From a virus (lineage: Duplodnaviria; Heunggongvirae; Uroviricota; Caudoviricetes): DNA of 49,111 nucleotides. Location of the stretch: the IMG/VR virus record IMGVR_UViG_2529292911_000007, one strand, 5' to 3'. Both the position numbers and the translations under genes were made by a program. Below, one piece after another: positions 16,815-43,922 of this stretch. The notes beneath the pieces were generated by a model. It saw only the letters and a list, made by a program, of their open reading frames with translations. It made no database searches and was not told the origin of the DNA. Position 1 is the first letter of the stretch. Each line of letters begins with the position of its first letter.

Positions 16815-17141
16815 ATGACTAAAAATACTCGTTTTTCCCCCGAAGTCCGTCAGCGGGCGATTCGTATGGTTCTGGAAAGTCAGGATGAATATGACTCACA
16901 GTGGGCGGCAATTTGTTCCATTGCCCCAAAGATTGGCTGTACGCCGGAGACTCTGCGTGTCTGGGTTCGCCAGCATGAGCGGGATACCGGGGGCGGTGAT
17001 GGTGGGCTCACCAGCGCTGAACGTCAGCGTCTGAAAGAGCTGGAACGTGAAAATCGTGAACTGCGCCGCAGTAACGATATCCTTCGCCAGGCTTCCGCTT
17101 ATTTTGCGAAGGCGGAGTTCGACCGCCTCTGGAAAAAATGA
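16815..17141 (+). CDS. IS3-family transposase OrfA (HTH)
   Basis: 108 aa [22 protein letters not shown]... with a leucine-zipper-like C-terminus. Confidence 0.85.
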
Positions 17142-18028
17142 TGCCACTGCTGGATAAGCTGCGTGAGCAGTACGGGGTCGGACCGGTATGCAGCGAACTG
17201 CATATTGCCCCGTCAACGTATTACCATTGTCAGCAACAGCGACATCATCCGGATAAACGCAGTGCCCGTGCGCAGCACGATGACTGGCTGAAGAGAGAGA
17301 TACAGCGCGTATACGATGAAAATCATCAGGTGTACGGTGTGCGTAAAGTCTGGCGTCAGTTGTTACGGGAAGGAATCAGGGTGGCCAGATGTACAGTGGC
17401 GCGCCTCATGGCGGTTATGGGACTTGCCGGTGTTCTCCGGGGTAAAAAGGTCCGTACGACCATCAGCCGGAAAGCCGTTGCCGCAGGCGACCGCGTAAAC
17501 CGTCAGTTCGTGGCAGAACGACCTGACCAGCTGTGGGTGGCTGATTTTACTTACGTCAGCACATGGCGGGGCTTCGTCTATGTGGCGTTCATCATTGATG
17601 TGTTTGCCGGATACATCGTGGGGTGGCGGGTCTCATCGTCTATGGAAACGACATTCGTGCTGGATGCGCTGGAGCAGGCGTTGTGGGCCCGTCGTCCGTC
17701 TGGCACCATCCATCACAGCGATAAAGGCTCTCAGTATGTGTCACTGGCCTATACGGAGCGACTAAAAGAAGCCGGATTACTGGCATCAACAGGGAGTACA
17801 GGCGACTCGTATGACAACGCGATGGCTGAGAGCATCAATGGTCTTTACAAAGCGGAGGTAATACACCGTAAGAGCTGGAAAAACCGTGCAGAAGTGGAAC
17901 TGGCCACACTAACGTGGGTGGACTGGTATAACAATCGACGATTGCTGGGAAGGCTGGGCCATACTCCTCCGGCAGAAGCAGAAAAAGCTTATTATGCTTC
18001 CATCGGAAACAATGATCTGGCAGCTTGA
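17138..18028 (+). CDS. IS3-family transposase OrfB (DDE integrase core)
   Basis: 296 aa with a DDE-type catalytic region (WVADFTYV...HHSDKGSQY...DNAMAES); overlaps orfA in the -1 frame. Confidence 0.85.
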
Positions 18029-36023: not shown

Positions 36024-39000
36024 ATGGGTAAAGGCAGCAGTAAGGGGCATACCCCGCGCGAAGCAAAGGACAACCTGAAGTCCACGCAGTTGCTGAGTGT
36101 GATCGATGCCATCAGCGAAGGGCCGATTGAAGGTCCGGTGGATGGATTAAAAAGCGTGCTGCTGAACAGTACACCGGTGCTGGACAGTGAGAGGAATACT
36201 AACATCTCCGGTGTCACGGTGGTGTTCCGGGCAGGTGAGCAGGAACAGACACCGCCGGAGGGATTTGAATCATCAGGTTCCGAGACGGTACTGGGTACGG
36301 AAGTGAAATACGACACGCCGATCACCCGGACCATCACGTCGGCAAACATTGACCGTCTGCGCTTTACCTTCGGTGTGCAGGCACTGGTGGAAACCACCTC
36401 AAAGGGGGACAGGAATCCGTCGGAAGTCCGCCTGCTGGTTCAGATACAACGTAACGGTGGCTGGGTGACGGAAAAAGACATCACCATTAAGGGCAAAACC
36501 ACCTCGCAGTATCTGGCCTCGGTAGTGGTGGATAATCTGCCGCCGCGCCCGTTCAACATCCGGATGCGCAGGATGACGCCGGACAGCACCACAGACCAGC
36601 TGCAGAACAAAACGCTCTGGTCGTCATACACCGAAATCATCGATGTGAAACAGTGCTACCCGAACACGGCACTGGTCGGCGTACAGGTGGATTCGGAGCA
36701 GTTCGGCAGCCAGCAGGTGAGCCGTAATTATCATCTTCGCGGGCGTATTCTGCAGGTGCCGTCGAATTATAACCCGCAGACGCGGCAATACAGCGGTATC
36801 TGGGACGGAACGTTTAAACCGGCATACAGCAATAACATGGCCTGGTGTCTGTGGGATATGCTGACCCACCCGCGCTACGGCATGGGTAAACGTCTTGGTG
36901 CGGCAGATGTGGATAAATGGGCGCTGTATGTCATCGGCCAGTGTTGCGACCAGTCGGTGCCGGACGGTTTTGGCGGCACGGAGCCGCGCATCACCTGTAA
37001 TGCCTGGCTGACCACACAGCGTAAGGCGTGGGATGTTCTCAGTGATTTCTGCTCGGCGATGCGCTGTATGCCGGTATGGAACGGGCAGACGCTGACGTTC
37101 GTGCAGGACCGACCATCAGATAAGGTGTGGACCTATAACCGCAGTAATGTGGTGATGCCGGATGATGGCGCGCCGTTCCGCTACAGCTTCAGCGCCCTGA
37201 AGGACCGCCATAATGCCGTTGAGGTGAACTGGATTGACCCGGATAACGGCTGGGAGACGGCGACAGAGCTTGTGGAGGACACGCAGGCCATTGCCCGTTA
37301 CGGTCGTAACGTCACGAAGATGGATGCCTTTGGCTGTACCAGCCGGGGGCAGGCACACCGCGCCGGGCTGTGGCTGATTAAAACGGAACTGCTGGAAACG
37401 CAGACCGTGGACTTCAGCGTGGGTGCCGAAGGGCTTCGCCATGTACCAGGTGATGTCATTGAAATCTGTGATGATGACTATGCGGGGATCAGCACCGGCG
37501 GGCGCGTGCTGGCGGTGAACAGCCAGACCCGGACGCTGACGCTCGACCGTGAAATCACGCTGCCATCCTCCGGTACCACGCTGATAAGCCTGGTTGACGG
37601 AAGTGGCAATCCGGTCAGCGTGGAGGTCCAGTCCGTCACCGACGGCGTGAAGGTAAAAGTGAGCCGTGTTCCTGACGGCGTTGCCGGATACAGCGTGTGG
37701 GGGCTGAAGCTGCCGACGCTGCGCCAGCGCCTGTTCCGCTGCGTGAGTATCCGTGAGAACGATGACGGTACGTATGCCATCACTGCCGTGCAGCATGTAC
37801 CGGAAAAAGAAGCCATCGTGGATAACGGGGCGCACTTTGACGGCGACCAGAGCGACACGGTGAATGGTGTCACGCCGCCAGCAGTGCAGCACCTGACTGC
37901 CGAAGTCACCGCAGACAGTGGGGAGTATCAGGTACTGGCCCGCTGGGATACGCCGAAGGTGGTGAAGGGCGTGAGTTTCATGCTTCGCCTGACCGTGGCA
38001 GCGGATGACGGCAGTGAGCGGCTGGTCAGCACAGCCCGGACGGCGGAAACCACATACCGCTTCACACAACTGGCGCTGGGGAACTACAGGCTGACAGTCC
38101 GGGCAGTAAATGCGTGGGGGCAGCAGGGCGATCCGGCATCGGTATCGTTCCGGATTGCCGCACCGGCAGCGCCGTCGCAGATTGAGCTGACACCGGGGTA
38201 TTTTCAGATAACCGCCACGCCGCATCTTGCGGTTTATGATCCGACGGTACAGTTTGAGTTCTGGTTCTCGGAAACGCGGATTACCGATATCAGGCAGGTT
38301 GAAACCACAGCCCGCTACCTTGGCACGGGGCTGTACTGGATAGCCGCCAGTATCAATATCAAACCGGGCCATGATTATTACTTTTATATCCGCAGTGTGA
38401 ACACCGTTGGCAAATCGGCATTCGTGGAGGCCGTCGGTCGGGCGAGCGATGATGCGGAAGGTTACCTGGATTTTTTCAAAGGCAAGATAACCGAATCCCA
38501 TCTCGGTAAAGGGCTGCTGGAAAAAGTCGACCTGACGGAAGATAACGCCAGCAGACTGGATCAGTTTTCGAAAGAGTGGAAAGACGCCAACGATAAATGG
38601 AATGCCATGTGGGGCGTCAAAATTGAGCAGACCGAAGACGGTAAGCATTATGTCGCGGGACTTGGCCTCAGCATGGAGGATACAGAGGAAGGCAAACTGA
38701 GCCAGTTTCTGGTTGCCGCTAACCGTATCGCGTTTATTGACCCGGCAAACGGGAATGAAACGCCGATGTTTGTGGCGCAGGGCAACCAGATATTCATGAA
38801 CGAAGTGTTCCTGAAACGCCTGACGGCCCCCACCATTACCAGTGGTGGAAATCCACCGGTATTTTCCCTGACACCGGACGGAAAGCTGACCGCTAAAAAT
38901 GCGGATATCAGTGGCAGTGTGAATGCGAACTCCGGGACGCTCAACAACGTCACGATAAATGAAAACTGTACGATTAAGGGTATGCTGGAGGCGAATCAGG

Positions 39001-39437
39001 TCAGAGGTGATTTTGTTAAAACAGTATCCAAATCATTCCCGAAAAAGGCTGGTACGTGGGGTAACACGGAAACACCAGACGGGACGGTTACAGTCACCAT
39101 CAGCGATGATCATAACTTTGACCGTCAAATCATTATTCCGCCCATTATCTTTAACGGTATAGCGTATGACGATCCGGGAAGTGGTGATAACCCGGGAGGT
39201 ACAAGGTACACGGGGTATGGTTTTGAAGTTCGCAAAAACGGCGTATTAATCGCATCCAGAGAAACTAAAGGGGCCATTCCCGGTAGTTACAGTGCGGTTA
39301 TTGATATGCCGAGTGGCAGGGGAAGCGTCACTCTGGAGTTTAAGATTTTCCAGAAAGGCAATCAGGGGGCAGGCAATATCACCGACTGTACGGTGATTGT
39401 GACCAAAAAGGCTGCTTCCGGCATCAGTATTCGTTGA
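36024..39437 (+). CDS. J: Central tail fibre / host-specificity protein J
   Basis: 1137 aa [44 protein letters not shown]...; lambda gpJ over most of its length; the extreme C-terminus appears divergent. Confidence 0.95.
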
Positions 39438-39507: not shown

Positions 39508-40107
39508 ATGCGTAAAGTTTGTGCAGCCATTTTGTCCGCAGCCATCTGTCTGGTCGTATCCGGTGCGCCTGCATGGGCGTCTGAACATCAGTCCACGCTG
39601 AGCGCGGGGTATCTTCATGCCTCGACGAACGTTCCCGGCAGCGATGATCTTAACGGGATTAACGTGAAATACCGTTATGAGTTTACGGACACGCTGGGGA
39701 TGGTGACGTCATTCAGCTATGCAGAAGACAAGAATCGCCAGCTGACTCATTACAGCGATACCCGCTGGCATGAAGATTCCGTGCGTAACCGCTGGTTCAG
39801 CGTGATGGCGGGGCCGTCTGTGCGCGTGAATGAATGGTTCAGCGCGTATGCGATGGCGGGTGTGGCTTACAGCCGTATTTCGACTTTCTCCGGGGATTAT
39901 CTCCGCGTAACTGACAACAAGGGGAAAACGCACGAAGTGCTGACCGGAAGTGATGACGGTCGCCGCAGCAACACGTCTCTGGCGTGGGGGGCTGGCGTGC
40001 AGTTTAACCCGACCGAATCCGTGGCCATTGATATTGTTTATGAAGGCTCCGGCAGTGGCGACTGGCGCACTGACGGTTTCATCGTGGGTGTCGGTTATAA
40101 GTTCTGA
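39508..40107 (+). CDS. lom: Lom outer-membrane protein (Ail/Lom family)
   Basis: 199 aa with signal peptide and beta-barrel pattern ending in YKF; immediately after J as in lambda. Confidence 0.85.
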   Translation: MRKVCAAILSAAICLVVSGAPAWASEHQSTLSAGYLHASTNVPGSDDLNGINVKYRYEFTDTLGMVTSFSYAEDKNRQLTHYSDTRWHEDSVRNRWFSVMAGPSVRVNEWFSAYAMAGVAYSRISTFSGDYLRVTDNKGKTHEVLTGSDDGRRSNTSLAWGAGVQFNPTESVAIDIVYEGSGSGDWRTDGFIVGVGYKF

Positions 40108-40165
40108 TTAGCCAGGTAACACAGTGTTATGACAGCCCGCCGGTTCAGGCGGGCTTTTTTGTGGG

Positions 40166-43100
40166 GTGAATATGGCAGTAAAGATTTCAGGTGTACTGAA
40201 AGACGGTGCAGGTAAACCGGTACAGAACTGCACAATCCAGCTGAAAGCAAAACGTAACAGCACCACGGTGGTGGTGAACACGGTGGCATCTGAAAATCCG
40301 GATGAAGCAGGGCGTTACAGCATGGACGTTGAGTACGGTCAGTACAGCGTTATTCTGTTGGTGGAAGGCTTCCCGCCATCGCATGCCGGGACCATCACCG
40401 TGTATGAAGATTCTCAACCCGGTACGCTGAATGATTTTCTCGGTGCCATGACGGAGGATGATGCCCGTCCGGAGGCACTGCGCCGCTTTGAACTGATGGT
40501 GGAAGAGGTGGCGCGTAACGCGTCCGCAGTGGCACAGGACACGGCAGCCGCGAAGAAGTCAGCCAGCGATGCCGGCACATCAGCCCGTGAGGCGGCAACC
40601 CATGCGACTGATGCTACAGGCTCAGCACGCGCAGCCAGCACGTCAGCCGGACAGGCCGCGTCGTCGGCTCAGTCAGCGTCTTCCAGCGCAGGAACGGCAT
40701 CAACAAAGGCTACTGAAGCATCAAAAAGTGCTGCCGCTGCAGAGTCCTCAAAAAGCGCGGCGGCCACCAGTGCCGGTGCGGCGAAAACGTCAGAAACGAA
40801 TGCGGCAGCGTCACAACAATCAGCCGCCACTTCTGCATCCACCGCGACCACGAAAGCGTCAGAAGCTGCCACCTCAGCCCGGGATGCGGCGGCCTCAAAA
40901 GAGGCAGCGAAATCATCAGAAACGAACGCATCATCAAGTGCCAGTAGTGCAGCTTCCTCGGCAACGGCGGCAGGAAATTCCGCGAAGGCCGCAAAAACGT
41001 CTGAGACGAATGCGGATAACAGCGCACAGGCGGCAGCGGCCTCACAAACTGCATCGGCAAACTCCGCGACAGCAGCCAAAAAATCAGAAACCAACGCGAA
41101 AAATAGCGAGGCAGCAGCAAAGAGCAGCGAAACAAACGCTAAAGCCAGCGAAACTAATGCTAAATCCAGTGAAACAAACGCGGCGAAATCTGCGGCGGAC
41201 GCACTTAATTATCGCAACCAGGCGCAAGTAATTGTTGGCGATAATATCGGTCTTGGCTCAGCCCCGCGTGATTGTCCTGATATTTCCGGCAACCCATCAG
41301 GGTATATCGGATTTATGCGCATTATGAGTAATGCAAAAGGCTTTCCATCGATTGCATCCGGTGAAAGCAGTCTTACGGGGTTTATTAGTCAGGTAGATGG
41401 AACACCAGCGTATACAGGTGTATTTCAGGGATGGGCTACGCGCTCGCTTTATACTTATCGCTGGAATCCGACAATAGGCCCGCAGTGGACGCGTCACGCA
41501 AGAAAAGATGCAGTGGACAGGCTTACTCAACTAACAGGTAATACACGCGTATATTGTCAAAATGCAAGCAAATTTTTTAGTATCTACGATTCAGGAACAT
41601 GGGGTTATTACGATGCAGAGAATAGCGAATGGATTCCGCTTTCGATCGCGGCCGGAGGTACTGGTGCGGCAACTATTGATGGTGCCAGAACGAATCTTGG
41701 CTTAGGTAGGAACAACAGCCCTCAACTTAACAGTCTATTTCTTGATAGATATAGTGATTCGACCAATACATACACATCTAGTGGAATTCTCCATACAAGA
41801 CTGTTAGCAACTGACAGCACTGTGCGTCTTGGTGCTGATATGTATGTTGAGACTTTATCAAATGAGCCAGGTCAATTAACAATAAGGTTTACATACGATG
41901 GTTCAACTGGTGCTTCAAAATATCTAAACCTTAACTCAGAAGGTAATTTAATTGTAGATAGTGCGATACTGAGATCAACGGTTGAAAAACCTTTACAAAT
42001 AAGGAGCGCTAACCCAGCAATAAGATTTAATGAAACAGATCGCCCGGCTAACACGCCTACTTATACTCTCATTGCTAATGCTGGCGACTGGTTTATTCAG
42101 AAACGCGATTATGATGATGCCGGAAGCGTTAGTAACGCAATTGCATATAATTTCGCAAACGACAGAATTGATGTGCAAAATCTTAAAGCGTCTGGGTTAA
42201 TTACAGCTAACTCAGGAATCGCAACATTAACAGGTCATGACTGGAACTCTCAGCATACTGATAACGTCGACAAATTTAGACCAATCGCAGGCAGTACAAA
42301 CGGCCCGGCAGGCTCTATGGTTCTTGGCGGCATTCATGTTCAATTTAGTAAAAATTATGCTGTGCAGTTCGGAGGCCGCAATTCCGGTTTTTGGGGAAGA
42401 ACAATTGAAAATGGAACGACGCAGGAATGGAAGAAATTACTAACAGTAGACGATCTCAATTCATCTACCGATCTTGCTGTCAGGTCATTAACCACATCTA
42501 ACCCGGTAAAATCTGGCGGAGGGCGAATTGATGTCCTTGGAAGCACGTCAGACTATAGCAAAATGGATTGCTTTGTACGTGGGTTTGATAGCACCGGTAA
42601 TTCTCTCGCGTGGGCGTTGGGTTCATCAGTCGGCGTAAGTAAGATGCTGTCGCTAAAAAATTTCTTTAGCGGAGCTGAGATACTGCTAAATGGTAATGAC
42701 GGCGCGGTTCAACTCAAAACAGGTGCTGTTAACGGGGCTAAAGCGCAGGCGCTCACTATCAACAAGGATGAGGTTAACTCAACTGTTGATTTAACTCTTA
42801 CAAAACAAACAGGGACTGGAAATCGTTTTGTTTTACAGAACTTAGGTAATACAGAACTATCATTTGCCGCAAAAGTATGGGGATCAAGTGATCGACAAAA
42901 CGTTTTTGAGGTTGGAACGTCTGCTGCGTATCTGTTTTATGCGCAAAAAACGTCAGCAGGCCAGTTGTTTGATGTAAATGGCGCTATTAATTGCACAACG
43001 CTGAATCAGTCATCAGACCGCGACCTTAAAGACGATATTCTCGTTATCAGCGACGCGACGAAAGCAATCCGTAAAATGAACGGATACACCTACACGCTCA

Positions 43101-43447
43101 AGGAAAACGGGATGCCTTATGCTGGCGTTATTGCACAGGAAGTAATGGAGGCGATACCAGAAGCTGTGGGATCGTTTACTCATTATGGTGAAGAGTTGCA
43201 AGGTCCGACCGTTGACGGCAACGAGCTACGCGAAGAAACTCGCTATCTTAATGTTGACTACTCCGCCGTGACGGGTTTACTTGTTCAGGTCGCCCGTGAA
43301 ACAGATGATCGCGTTACCGCGCTGGAAGAGGAAAACACAACGCTACGTCAAAATCTGGCAACAGCAGGCACCCGGATCAGCACTCTGGAAAATCAGGTAA
43401 GCGAACTGGTTGCACTTGTCCGGCAGTTAACAGGAAGCGAACATTGA
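40166..43447 (+). CDS. stf: Side tail fibre protein with C-terminal self-cleaving intramolecular chaperone (S74-like) domain
   Basis: N-terminus MAVKISGVLKDGAGKPVQNCTIQLKA... and Ala/Ser-rich shaft match lambda Stf; distal part is AT-rich; the C-terminus (SSDRDLKDDILVI...GYTYTLKENG...GVIAQEV...LNVDYSAVTGLLVQ...coiled coil) resembles the endosialidase/T5 L-fibre chaperone domain. Confidence 0.8.
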   Translation: MNMAVKISGVLKDGAGKPVQNCTIQLKAKRNSTTVVVNTVASENPDEAGRYSMDVEYGQYSVILLVEGFPPSHAGTITVYEDSQPGTLNDFLGAMTEDDARPEALRRFELMVEEVARNASAVAQDTAAAKKSASDAGTSAREAATHATDATGSARAASTSAGQAASSAQSASSSAGTASTKATEASKSAAAAESSKSAAATSAGAAKTSETNAAASQQSAATSASTATTKASEAATSARDAAASKEAAKSSETNASSSASSAASSATAAGNSAKAAKTSETNADNSAQAAAASQTASANSATAAKKSETNAKNSEAAAKSSETNAKASETNAKSSETNAAKSAADALNYRNQAQVIVGDNIGLGSAPRDCPDISGNPSGYIGFMRIMSNAKGFPSIASGESSLTGFISQVDGTPAYTGVFQGWATRSLYTYRWNPTIGPQWTRHARKDAVDRLTQLTGNTRVYCQNASKFFSIYDSGTWGYYDAENSEWIPLSIAAGGTGAATIDGARTNLGLGRNNSPQLNSLFLDRYSDSTNTYTSSGILHTRLLATDSTVRLGADMYVETLSNEPGQLTIRFTYDGSTGASKYLNLNSEGNLIVDSAILRSTVEKPLQIRSANPAIRFNETDRPANTPTYTLIANAGDWFIQKRDYDDAGSVSNAIAYNFANDRIDVQNLKASGLITANSGIATLTGHDWNSQHTDNVDKFRPIAGSTNGPAGSMVLGGIHVQFSKNYAVQFGGRNSGFWGRTIENGTTQEWKKLLTVDDLNSSTDLAVRSLTTSNPVKSGGGRIDVLGSTSDYSKMDCFVRGFDSTGNSLAWALGSSVGVSKMLSLKNFFSGAEILLNGNDGAVQLKTGAVNGAKAQALTINKDEVNSTVDLTLTKQTGTGNRFVLQNLGNTELSFAAKVWGSSDRQNVFEVGTSAAYLFYAQKTSAGQLFDVNGAINCTTLNQSSDRDLKDDILVISDATKAIRKMNGYTYTLKENGMPYAGVIAQEVMEAIPEAVGSFTHYGEELQGPTVDGNELREETRYLNVDYSAVTGLLVQVARETDDRVTALEEENTTLRQNLATAGTRISTLENQVSELVALVRQLTGSEH

Positions 43448-43618
43448 TATCCTTCAAGCCCTGAAGGAGGCTGTTCCTGGTACGTTCAGACTGTTGCTGA
43501 GCTGGAGATCGCAACGGAGGAAGAGAAAGCGTTTCTGGCCGCATGGAAAACATATCGGGTATTGCTGAACCGTGTTGATACAGTAAACCCCGTCTGGCCT
43601 CCACCTTCGAAGCGATAG
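43448..43618 (+). pseudogene. tfa: Tail fibre assembly protein (Tfa) C-terminal remnant, in frame directly after the stf stop
   Basis: Translation ...[29 protein letters not shown]... resembles the lambda Tfa C-terminus (EIATKEE...[22 protein letters not shown], from memory); no start codon or N-terminal part. Confidence 0.45.
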
Positions 43619-43922
43619 CCCAGCAACTCCTAAATAGCTGCGCATAATACCGCTACACCTGCCGTTTTACTGACATTTGGAATATTGCGTGAGGGCAACA
43701 TATCGAGGGGCAGATACAGCTCGGTCAAATAGAAAAACAGCCCCACTATTTACCATGCAATAGCTGGTCAAAAGGAGAGCACTATTCCGCTCCGCGTAGT
43801 ATTTTGTGTTTATAGTGATAACTTAGGTAATGCTTAGTCACTAAGATACTTTGCTATTGGAGAGCGATTTATAATGTGGGCGCAACAGATTTTTACTATT
43901 GCGCCACTTGCTCTTGTGAGTA

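Follow-up and report, generated by a model that had tools for sequence, protein, structure and literature searches.

In Ur-lambda, the side tail fiber gene lies after J and lom, and the distal part of Stf (orf-401/orf-314) requires the product of the neighboring tfa gene (orf-194) as a separate chaperone. Recombination in stf/tfa between lambda and defective prophages has been observed experimentally, including crossovers inside tfa (PMC3945230), and a functional lambda-P2 Stf chimera has been described (10.1101/2022.09.30.509847). Other fibers carry their chaperone with them. T5 pb1 and the endosialidase of phage K1F (4UW8-type, 3GW6) end in a chaperone of ~133-145 residues that has a mixed alpha/beta part, a long helix, and a Ser followed five residues later by a Lys. 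For pb1, the S1264A substitution abolishes cleavage (PMC4690869). The lateral tail fiber of the virulent phage FritzHoffmann (Nonagvirus, Bas20, QXV79286.1) combines an N-terminal domain with a chaperone of this S74 type in a protein of about 1060-1091 aa, and it is followed by an unrelated small gene and no tfa stub. Finally, phage mEp460 (JQ182728, AFM76057.1) places an stf gene with a lambda-type N-terminal domain and an S74 end after J and lom, and this gene is followed by a 37-nt linker and a tfa stub.

The locus examined here, in an Escherichia coli prophage, has the same plan as that of mEp460. It lies in a stretch of 49,111 nt of tailed-phage DNA, hereafter the window, and its features are collected in Table 1. 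Our favored reading, to which we assign a probability of roughly 0.85, is that the locus specifies a lambdoid prophage side tail fiber of the self-chaperoned type, and that the tfa stub behind it derives from the ancestral replacement of a tip cassette. The arrangement is known and ordinary, and does not constitute a new kind of system. RefSeq already names the fiber from a locus of E. coli CV839-06 that is 100% identical to this one (WP_000268788.1, 'prophage tail fiber N-terminal domain and S74 family endopeptidase-containing protein'), and marks the stub as a pseudogene ('tail fiber assembly protein, incomplete, missing N-terminus').

Table 1. Features of the side tail fiber locus, in window coordinates
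Feature	Position	Strand	Basis or remark
Terminator-like hairpin between lom and stf	40134-40155	+	8-bp GC-rich stem, then T-run
stf, side tail fiber gene, 1091 aa	40172-43447	+	ORF list, RefSeq, PHROG
N-terminal virion-attachment domain (phage_tail_N)	40172-40573	+	PF08400; lambda Stf identity 87%
Ala/Ser/Thr-rich shaft with repeated AAK(T/S)SETNA motifs	40574-41206	+	composition, repeats
Distal fiber/receptor-binding modules, aa 346-947	41207-43012	+	low GC; unrelated to lambda distal Stf
C-terminal intramolecular chaperone/Peptidase_S74 domain, aa 948-1091	43013-43444	+	PF13884, conserved residues, AF2
Predicted scissile/catalytic Ser948	43013-43015	+	
Predicted Lys953 of S74 site	43028-43030	+	
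Linker, 37 nt, from stf stop to tfa-derived sequence	43448-43484	+	
tfa stub core, ~ lambda Tfa aa ~147-179; putative right homology arm	43485-43582	+	PF02413, lambda tfa identity
Lineage-specific Tfa-like tail, 11 residues + TAG	43583-43618	+	linked to downstream acyltransferase region

The proximal part of the fiber is of the lambda type. RefSeq starts the gene at the ATG at position 40172, whereas the mechanically called open reading frame (ORF) begins at a GTG at position 40166; the Pfam coordinates given below follow the latter numbering. The gene order is J-lom-stf, with lom recognized by PF06316 (E 4.9e-123), and the full PF08400 profile (positions 1-134) matches aa 3-136 of the fiber (E 1.2e-71). 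The protein also matches the tail fiber family phrog_6578 with 1120 bits, and aa 3-286 are 87% identical to lambda orf-401. The lambda-type N-terminus and Ala/Ser-rich shaft described in the initial annotation are thus borne out. The shaft, 90% of which is A, S, T, E, K, or N, extends to aa 345. It contains a 28-nt repeat family with copies at 40778, 40904, 40988, and 41072 and a spacing of 84 nt, as well as a tandem repeat with a 21-nt unit at 41125-41181.

The initial annotation had placed the switch to unrelated sequence near codon 350. This agrees with the end of the shaft, where GC content falls from 0.58 to 0.435 for the distal region (GC3 there is 0.34), but DNA homology to lambda is lost earlier, at position 41013 (~codon 281). 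This break, which recurs in the comparison with the related phage mEp460_ev081, lies inside or at the end of the repeat copy at 40988-41015. Many loci show another break at 41145.

Beyond the shaft, we detected no similarity between the distal part of Stf and lambda orf-314 (best E 0.16), as the initial annotation had proposed, and the fiber therefore does not belong with the Tfa-dependent tips of the lambda kind. Its tblastn matches are instead in T5-like, rV5-like, and Queuovirinae phages. The fiber of FritzHoffmann is 35% identical to Stf in the N-terminal domain, 61% identical over aa 318-509, and 72% identical over aa 670-1064, a segment that includes S74; DNA similarity between the two stops at 43334, ahead of the stf stop codon and the linker. 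Stf of mEp460 is longer (1202 aa) and has a different central segment, with homology interrupted between 41524 and 42230. Indeed, the breakpoint map defines a hypervariable center of the distal part that runs from about 41145, 41315, or 41524 to 42229 or 42479.

Judged from these sequence relationships, the distal part is a lateral-tail-fiber module common to virulent siphoviruses and myoviruses. The resemblance to endosialidase-type fibers that was initially suggested holds for the chaperone domain only: the remainder of the distal part is not endosialidase-like, and the receptor-binding region has no detectable sequence relation to either the T5 bullet domain or a sialidase. When the distal 744 aa were searched against PDB sequences, the sole match was phage S16 gp37 (6F45), in its S74 part. 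A single-sequence AlphaFold model of aa 800-1091 (pLDDT 40) was too poor for a fold search.

The C-terminus of Stf is an S74 chaperone domain that is probably self-cleaving. The profile search proposed with the initial annotation was positive: positions 1-57 of 58 of PF13884 match aa 950-1001 in the GTG-started numbering, and the score of 49.7 bits (E 4.5e-13) is well above the cut-off of 22. A search of NCBIfam gave no match for either the fiber or the stub. The sequence S948-D-R-D-L-K953 places a Lys five residues after a Ser, which is the spacing of S1264 and K1269 in T5 pb1 (PMC4690869). Among 117 S74 representatives (one per cluster at 50% identity, from proteins of many lengths), the Ser and the Asp equivalent to Asp949 are each present in 116 and the Lys in all; both Ser948 and Lys953 are invariant in our alignment A1. 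As in Stf, the domain is located at or near the protein C-terminus in the best 150 representatives.

Structure prediction points in the same direction. An AF2 model of the chaperone domain, built as a monomer rather than a trimer with an alignment of 34 sequences, reached a pLDDT of 89.4 and combines a mixed alpha/beta part with a long C-terminal helix. At E <= 0.001, Foldseek matched this predicted model only to 7DC3 (MyRF ICA), 3GW6 (endoNF chaperone), and 3GUD, each with a probability of 1.00, so its fold is that of solved chaperone domains even though sequence identity to them is only about 15-24%.

Most likely, three Stf chains would join the tail tip through their N-terminal domains and extend outward through the shaft, such that the distal region would be the first to touch the cell surface, in a reversible manner. 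A trimer of the final 144 residues would template the folding of the preceding fiber tip, after which the S74 domain would excise itself at Ser948 by using Lys953. Because a built-in chaperone would fold the tip, a separate Tfa protein would be dispensable. That phages can be viable without tfa is suggested by mEp460, Ayreon, and PhiR70_1, which are isolated phages with the same joint between the stf end and the stub, and with no intact tfa after stf.

No intact tfa gene is present in the window. After the stf stop codon, 56 codons (43448-43615) continue in the stf frame to a TAG at 43616-43618. All 56 had been described as encoding a Tfa-like motif, which proved correct from codon 13 onward (~43485; ~45 last codons of tfa), whereas the first 12 codons form a linker that is not Tfa-like and that matches only lambdoid phages of the S74 type. 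RNA folding predicts a 7-bp hairpin in the linker at 43450-43468. The core of the stub is 79.6% identical to lambda tfa at the nucleotide level and, as the initial annotation had anticipated, clearly Tfa-like in translation, with 70% aa identity to Tfa aa 147-179. PF02413 (Caudo_TAP) matches only with its C-terminal portion (positions 87-127 of 131; E 2.7e-11), and in this frame no ATG, GTG, or TTG opens a stretch of at least 20 codons. The stub is therefore a gene fragment. Its in-frame position is most likely a coincidence, because one in three such junctions is expected to be in frame by chance and the frame has been inherited from a single junction.

After position 43582, the tail of the stub in the window differs from that of all other stub lineages, although its match to the Tfa profile continues as far as the W-P motif and it resembles P1-like tails of the TfaE type. 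There are 32 E. coli genomes in which this tail occurs together with the acyltransferase. It terminates a stub in the two of these 32 that were inspected, and no intact tfa with this tail was found beside the acyltransferase in E. coli genomes. The stub of mEp460 has another tail and is followed by DinI and integrase genes.

The initial annotation attributed the arrangement to recombination that replaced the fiber tip and its assembly system and left a fragment of tfa. A replacement is supported by mEp460_ev081, in which the tip is conventional and tfa is intact: what its cassette shares with that of mEp460 is limited to the shaft up to the equivalent of 41013 and to ~100-120 nt at the 3' end of tfa. 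However, the event was not local to this prophage. Its junction is ancestral and widespread, being identical in all 60 fully readable loci among 62 that carry the linker, with ~2 variable sites in the linker across the 60. The search pattern for these loci was a 30-nt piece of the linker itself, such that loci with other junctions are invisible to this count. Of 5426 complete E. coli genomes, 802 (about 15%) have the joint between the stf end and the stub. The junction 30-mer had no match in a collection with one genome per species, and its known spread is therefore among E. coli prophages.

It seems reasonable to propose that the tip cassette replaced a conventional distal stf and tfa through a single ancestral illegitimate join, which would have left the linker and the last codons of tfa. 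Subsequent spread among lambdoid prophages probably proceeded by homologous or homeologous recombination, with the shaft motifs on the left and the tfa 3' end on the right. Breakpoints recur at 41013, 41145, 41315, 41524, 42229, 42479, and 43582, and the homology of almost all related loci stops at the last of these. The stub exists as 36 distinct variants in which blocks of tfa alleles have been reshuffled, and its tails match the C-termini of different intact Tfa proteins (e.g., lambda WPAVPVME). Because of this allelic patchwork and the end of homology at 43582, the stub looks like the right arm, and the shaft repeats the left arm, of a cassette exchange. Such an exchange would cause the stub blocks, tail, and downstream cargo of each lineage to come from a different tfa allele or region. 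A point against this proposal is that the conserved core of the stub is only about 80-87% identical to intact tfa alleles over about 100 nt. By the standards of RecA-type recombination this is a short and diverged stretch, and the exchange presumably relies on relaxed phage recombinases.

A stronger version of this proposal is that the stub, with its roughly 100 nt of the most conserved part of tfa, has been kept as a 'docking arm' for two-way swaps with the conventional stf-tfa cassettes of co-resident prophages, perhaps while also serving as an IS009-like 3'-UTR RNA. The suggestion arises because all 60 fully readable loci have the stub, 59 of them with an uninterrupted frame up to a Tfa-like C-terminal end, and because its sequence is pieced together from live tfa alleles. 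We consider retention for this purpose to be rather unlikely.

Another possibility is that stf is a decaying relic of a defective prophage, with an inactive S74 domain or a fiber that is no longer made, in which case the arrangement would be uninformative about any functioning assembly route. An IS3-family element in the window (ALIL pseudoknot at 17096-17212), a nonsense codon in J of a sister strain, and truncated versions of the stf locus in other strains could be taken as signs of such decay. Yet stf has an intact ORF, and its product shares 93-98% identity with many full-length proteins, mostly of 1090 aa. All S74 catalytic and signature residues are retained, J is intact in the window, and phages that have been isolated and propagated have this cassette too. 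Thus, we regard decay of the fiber gene as quite unlikely.

The conservation of this region might alternatively reflect a regulatory RNA, in which the 3' end of stf, together with the linker and the stub, forms a small RNA or 3'-UTR-derived sRNA of the Rfam IS009 type. The model RF02111 aligns end to end with positions 43387-43587 on the plus strand (69.1 bits; E about 1e-15). Matches to IS009 are reported to be associated with prophages and to be frequent near the prophage sRNA PasB (10.64898/2026.05.13.724894), and other lineages have a terminator-like hairpin 3' of the stub. However, the score is well short of the gathering threshold of 117 bits, the match is absent from a scan at that threshold, and we do not accept the region as a member of the family. 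The structured 5' half of IS009 aligns poorly, whereas the well-aligned half (model positions 113-199) is annotated as unstructured and is itself tfa 3' coding sequence. Furthermore, the predicted RNA fold of 43430-43640 is no more stable than those of shuffled sequences (z = -1.3), and scans for promoters and terminators 3' of stf and flanking the match in the window yielded nothing above chance. IS009 was also among the Rfam entries left out of the ncRNA analysis in a study of EHEC (PMC5331693). We therefore judge a regulatory RNA to be a very improbable explanation.

Least credible of all is translation of the stub, by readthrough of the stf stop codon or by initiation of its own behind a Shine-Dalgarno-like GAAGGAGG in the linker (43463-43470), to give either a mini-Tfa or additional C-terminal residues on Stf. 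The frame of the stub, its openness in nearly all loci, and the GAAGGAGG motif are hints in this direction. However, the frame carries a one-in-three prior and lacks a usable start codon, Tfa residues 1-146 are absent, and residues added to Stf would be attached to a chaperone domain that is predicted to be removed anyway. The openness is explained by repeated replacement from intact tfa, as indicated by the reshuffled blocks and by tails identical to those of intact alleles. Programmed readthrough was rejected as a specific candidate: most loci use TGA to end stf but strain M217 uses TAA, a variation that a programmed signal would not be expected to show, and no supporting feature was found. 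The stub is most likely an untranslated remnant of tfa, and it should not be called a gene in prophage annotations.

The self-chaperoned reading makes this locus a natural example of a lambda-type fiber base on which a separate Tfa and a built-in self-cleaving chaperone have been exchanged as cassettes, with exchange points that are legible in the sequence. For the design of chimeric lambda Stf proteins for targeted delivery, a tip of the S74 type should need no chaperone gene.

Two additional observations concern the surroundings of the fiber gene. An IS element at ~17.1 kb, and a nonsense mutation in J of the sister strain CV839-06, raise the possibility that the prophage as a whole is defective. 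In addition, the annotation of phage mEp460 lists a rho-independent terminator at the site equivalent to the hairpin that separates lom from stf.

The window is a lambdoid Escherichia coli prophage in which positions 40100-44000 are 100% identical to E. coli CV839-06 (NZ_CP025753), and the 41200-43900 segment is carried with 100% identity by CV839-06 and two porcine ETEC strains. The side tail fibre gene stf is the long open reading frame (ORF) listed below. RefSeq places its start at ATG 40172, giving a 1091-residue protein whose N-terminus (MAVKISG) is the same as that of lambda Stf, and Stf residues are counted here from this ATG. At position 38205 the J gene has a CAG codon, whereas the otherwise near-identical CV839-06 has TAG and is annotated with an 'internal stop'. 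With J intact in the window, the DNA comes from a sister strain, and the tail tip is potentially functional. An IS3-family insertion sequence within the prophage, recognised by its ALIL pseudoknot (17096-17212, + strand; Rfam, 121 bits), may have inactivated a phage gene.

Coordinates of the tail genes and of the McrBC-like pair at the prophage end
Feature	Coordinates	Position in gene order
J	36024-39437	first in the order J, lom, long ORF
lom	39508-40107	between J and the long ORF
long ORF (stf)	40166-43447	after lom
AAA ATPase of McrBC-like pair	46047-48029	
McrC of McrBC-like pair	from 48026	

The lambda-type proximal part described in the initial annotation is well founded. The Stf N-terminus matches the Pfam family phage_tail_N (PF08400; E 1.2e-71), and the first ~284 residues are 87% identical to lambda orf-401, with no similarity beyond. 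A switch to unrelated, AT-rich sequence had been placed near codon 350. That position is indeed the end of the shaft, since Ala, Ser, Thr, Glu, Lys and Asn make up 90% of the shaft-like sequence up to residue 345. Furthermore, GC content drops from 0.58 to 0.435 (GC3 0.34) over 41207-43012 and rises again to 0.50 in the C-terminal domain, and sequence comparison finds the distal part unrelated to that of lambda (orf-314). However, the break with lambda itself lies earlier, at about codon 281: DNA homology ends at 41013, which is the end of one copy of a 28-nt repeat encoding AAK(T/S)SETNA at 84-nt spacing.

The proposed intramolecular chaperone at the fibre end is backed by three independent lines of evidence: a Pfam match, conserved residues and a predicted fold. 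Peptidase_S74 (PF13884) matches near the Stf C-terminus with E 4.5e-13 and 49.7 bits against a cut-off of 22. A HMMER search with residues 930-1091 retrieved 4080 cluster representatives from the full library at E <= 0.001, and the domain forms the C-terminal end of representatives of widely differing lengths. When Stf is aligned with 116 representatives, Lys953 is present in 117 of 117 sequences and Ser948 and Asp949 each in 116, and Gly971, Gly985, Ala988, Gln989 and Pro996 are likewise invariant or nearly so. The Ser948/Lys953 spacing corresponds to Ser1264/Lys1269 of T5 pb1. In that protein the S1264A exchange prevents self-cleavage, and the C-terminal 133 residues assemble into a chaperone trimer that has a central coiled coil (PMC4690869). 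Residues 925-1091 of Stf were modelled with AlphaFold from a 34-sequence alignment; the model has a mean pLDDT of 89.4 and a long C-terminal helix. When the PDB was searched with this model using Foldseek, just three entries matched at E <= 0.001, each with probability 1.00: 7DC3 (MyRF ICA domain), 3GW6 (endosialidase intramolecular chaperone) and 3GUD. We infer that Stf cleaves itself at this domain.

The intervening residues 346-947 have no Pfam assignment and are not endosialidase-like. Instead, they are common to the lateral tail fibres of virulent phages. The lateral fibre of Nonagvirus FritzHoffmann is 61% identical to Stf over residues 318-509 and 72% over 670-1064, and even its N-terminal domain is 35% identical; other Queuovirinae, T5-like and rV5-like phages share the distal region. 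Thus, Stf follows a general siphovirus lateral-fibre design, of which the lambda type with its separate assembly chaperone Tfa is one variant. Besides 41013, recurrent breakpoints fall at 41145, 41315 and 41524 on the left and at 42229 and 42479 on the right. In 51 IMG/VR loci, the central part of stf that these breakpoints enclose (41145-42479) is hypervariable, while the last ~320 residues (42479-43447, fibre end and chaperone) are 82-98% conserved. Given this pattern in the sequences, specificity may reside mid-fibre instead of being confined to the extreme tip; a second lateral binding domain, like that described for T-shaped fibres, is a possible site.

Beyond the stf stop codon (TGA, 43445-43447), 56 more codons can be read in the same frame before the next stop, TAG 43616-43618. 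These codons had been called Tfa-like as a whole, which holds from codon 13 onward, where the stretch shows 70% identity to lambda Tfa residues 147-179. Before that comes a 37-nt linker (43448-43484) that matches nothing but other S74-type lambdoid phages. Directly 3′ of the stop codon, a 7-bp hairpin (UCCUUCA-AGCCC-UGAAGGA; 43450-43468, + strand) without a T-run is kept in every lineage examined, with only its loop varying; it may be a relic of the donor's 3′ end.

Among 5426 complete E. coli genomes, 802 carry the region that runs from the stf 3′ end into this tfa stub (43250-43582). Three phages that have been isolated, mEp460, Ayreon and PhiR70_1, have the joint too, and in each of them stf is not followed by an intact tfa. 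A 30-nt linker pattern retrieved the 51 IMG/VR viral contigs, a set therefore blind to any different junction, and 62 loci in total with the window and reference loci counted. Because the linker is common to all 60 fully readable loci, with about two variable sites, these sequences make it most likely that tfa was truncated once. Two linker types exist at the protein level, one being YPSSSEGGCSRY. The stub, in turn, occurs as 36 variants of reshuffled blocks. Middle blocks include EEEKALLAAW, EEETSLLEVW, EEETLLLEAW and EEENSLLEAW, and there are at least seven kinds of C-terminal tail, several of which are the ends of intact Tfa proteins (e.g., lambda DIEWPAVPVME). Homology between lineages stops at 43582 in almost every case, and the genes beyond differ (DinI/integrase, a GIY-YIG protein, a methyltransferase or, in the window, an acyltransferase). 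Moreover, the shaft to the 41013 equivalent and the final ~120 nt of tfa are all that mEp460 shares here with mEp460_ev081, whose tip is conventional and whose tfa is intact.

The locus is best explained if a conventional distal-stf and tfa cassette was exchanged, a single time, for a tip cassette that encodes its own chaperone, an event that left the tfa 3′ end behind. The cassette would later have spread by recombination, with shaft repeats and the stub as homology arms, so that each transfer would gain the recipient's tfa tail and retain its downstream cargo. Published experiments lend plausibility to this scenario: lambda recombines with defective prophages by relaxed homologous recombination in stf/tfa, with one third of right-hand crossovers within tfa (PMC3945230), and lambda Stf chimeras bearing a foreign distal part are functional (10.1101/2022.09.30.509847).

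An RNA function for the stub region is suggested only by an end-to-end Rfam match to IS009 (RF02111; 43387-43587, + strand), which at 69.1 bits (E about 1e-15) stays below the gathering score of 117. Its well-aligned half is the part that the model marks as unstructured and is tfa 3′ coding sequence, and the RNA fold in this region is not unusual. That the stub is translated, whether by readthrough or from a start of its own, is unlikely: no ATG, GTG or TTG opens the Tfa frame behind stf, one lineage ends stf with TAA, and three quarters of Tfa are absent. Although the stub is open in 59 of 60 loci (frameshifted in one), constant replacement from live tfa alleles accounts for this. That the stf ORF is intact, highly conserved and carried by viable phages contradicts the idea that the locus as a whole is decaying.

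Given the coding nature of the IS009 half, it may be asked whether tfa remnants essentially underlie this Rfam 'sRNA gene' family. There is also a weak isrG-like match (20 bits, E 0.035) at 40751-40865 (- strand). A 2026 preprint reports IsrG and IS009 as the most frequent Rfam matches flanking PasB, a prophage sRNA located within a phage structural operon, which ETEC strains usually have as their single Pas sRNA (10.64898/2026.05.13.724894); a PasB-like sRNA may therefore lie near the J-lom-stf region.

Every element of the initial observation is real, and the finding is correct yet ordinary. The NCBI pipeline already annotates a 'prophage tail fiber N-terminal domain and S74 family endopeptidase-containing protein' and a partial tfa pseudogene, which RefSeq labels 'tail fiber assembly protein, incomplete, missing N-terminus'. 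The same stf gene is in the 2012 mEp460 record and is covered by PHROG 6578. What the analysis adds is incremental: a map of the breakpoints, the single junction that the loci share, and the patchwork make-up of the stub.

In two of the linker-bearing loci, L013 (E. coli AR_0369, 4717-5049) and L045, the whole of stf is deleted. There, an in-frame junction at a short stretch of ATAT microhomology connects lom codon ~55 (…NGINVK) directly to linker and stub, so that the defective prophage carries an ORF for a Lom(1-55)-stub fusion.

The low-GC (0.32) acyltransferase gene (PF01757; 43923-45010, - strand) comes immediately after the stub and is read in the opposite direction. It is one 362-aa coding sequence in CV839-06, whereas in the window a T/A homopolymer 1 nt shorter causes a frameshift (~44814-44821) that splits it into two ORFs. 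Five further homopolymer indels and three substitutions separate the two sequences across 14 kb; this has the look of errors from long-read sequencing, with phase variation as a possible alternative. The cargo at the prophage end (45200-49111) is a recombinase pseudogene and then the McrBC-like pair. In CV839-06 a truncated isocitrate dehydrogenase-family gene follows this pair, which suggests that the prophage integrated at icd, as did e14 and phage 21.
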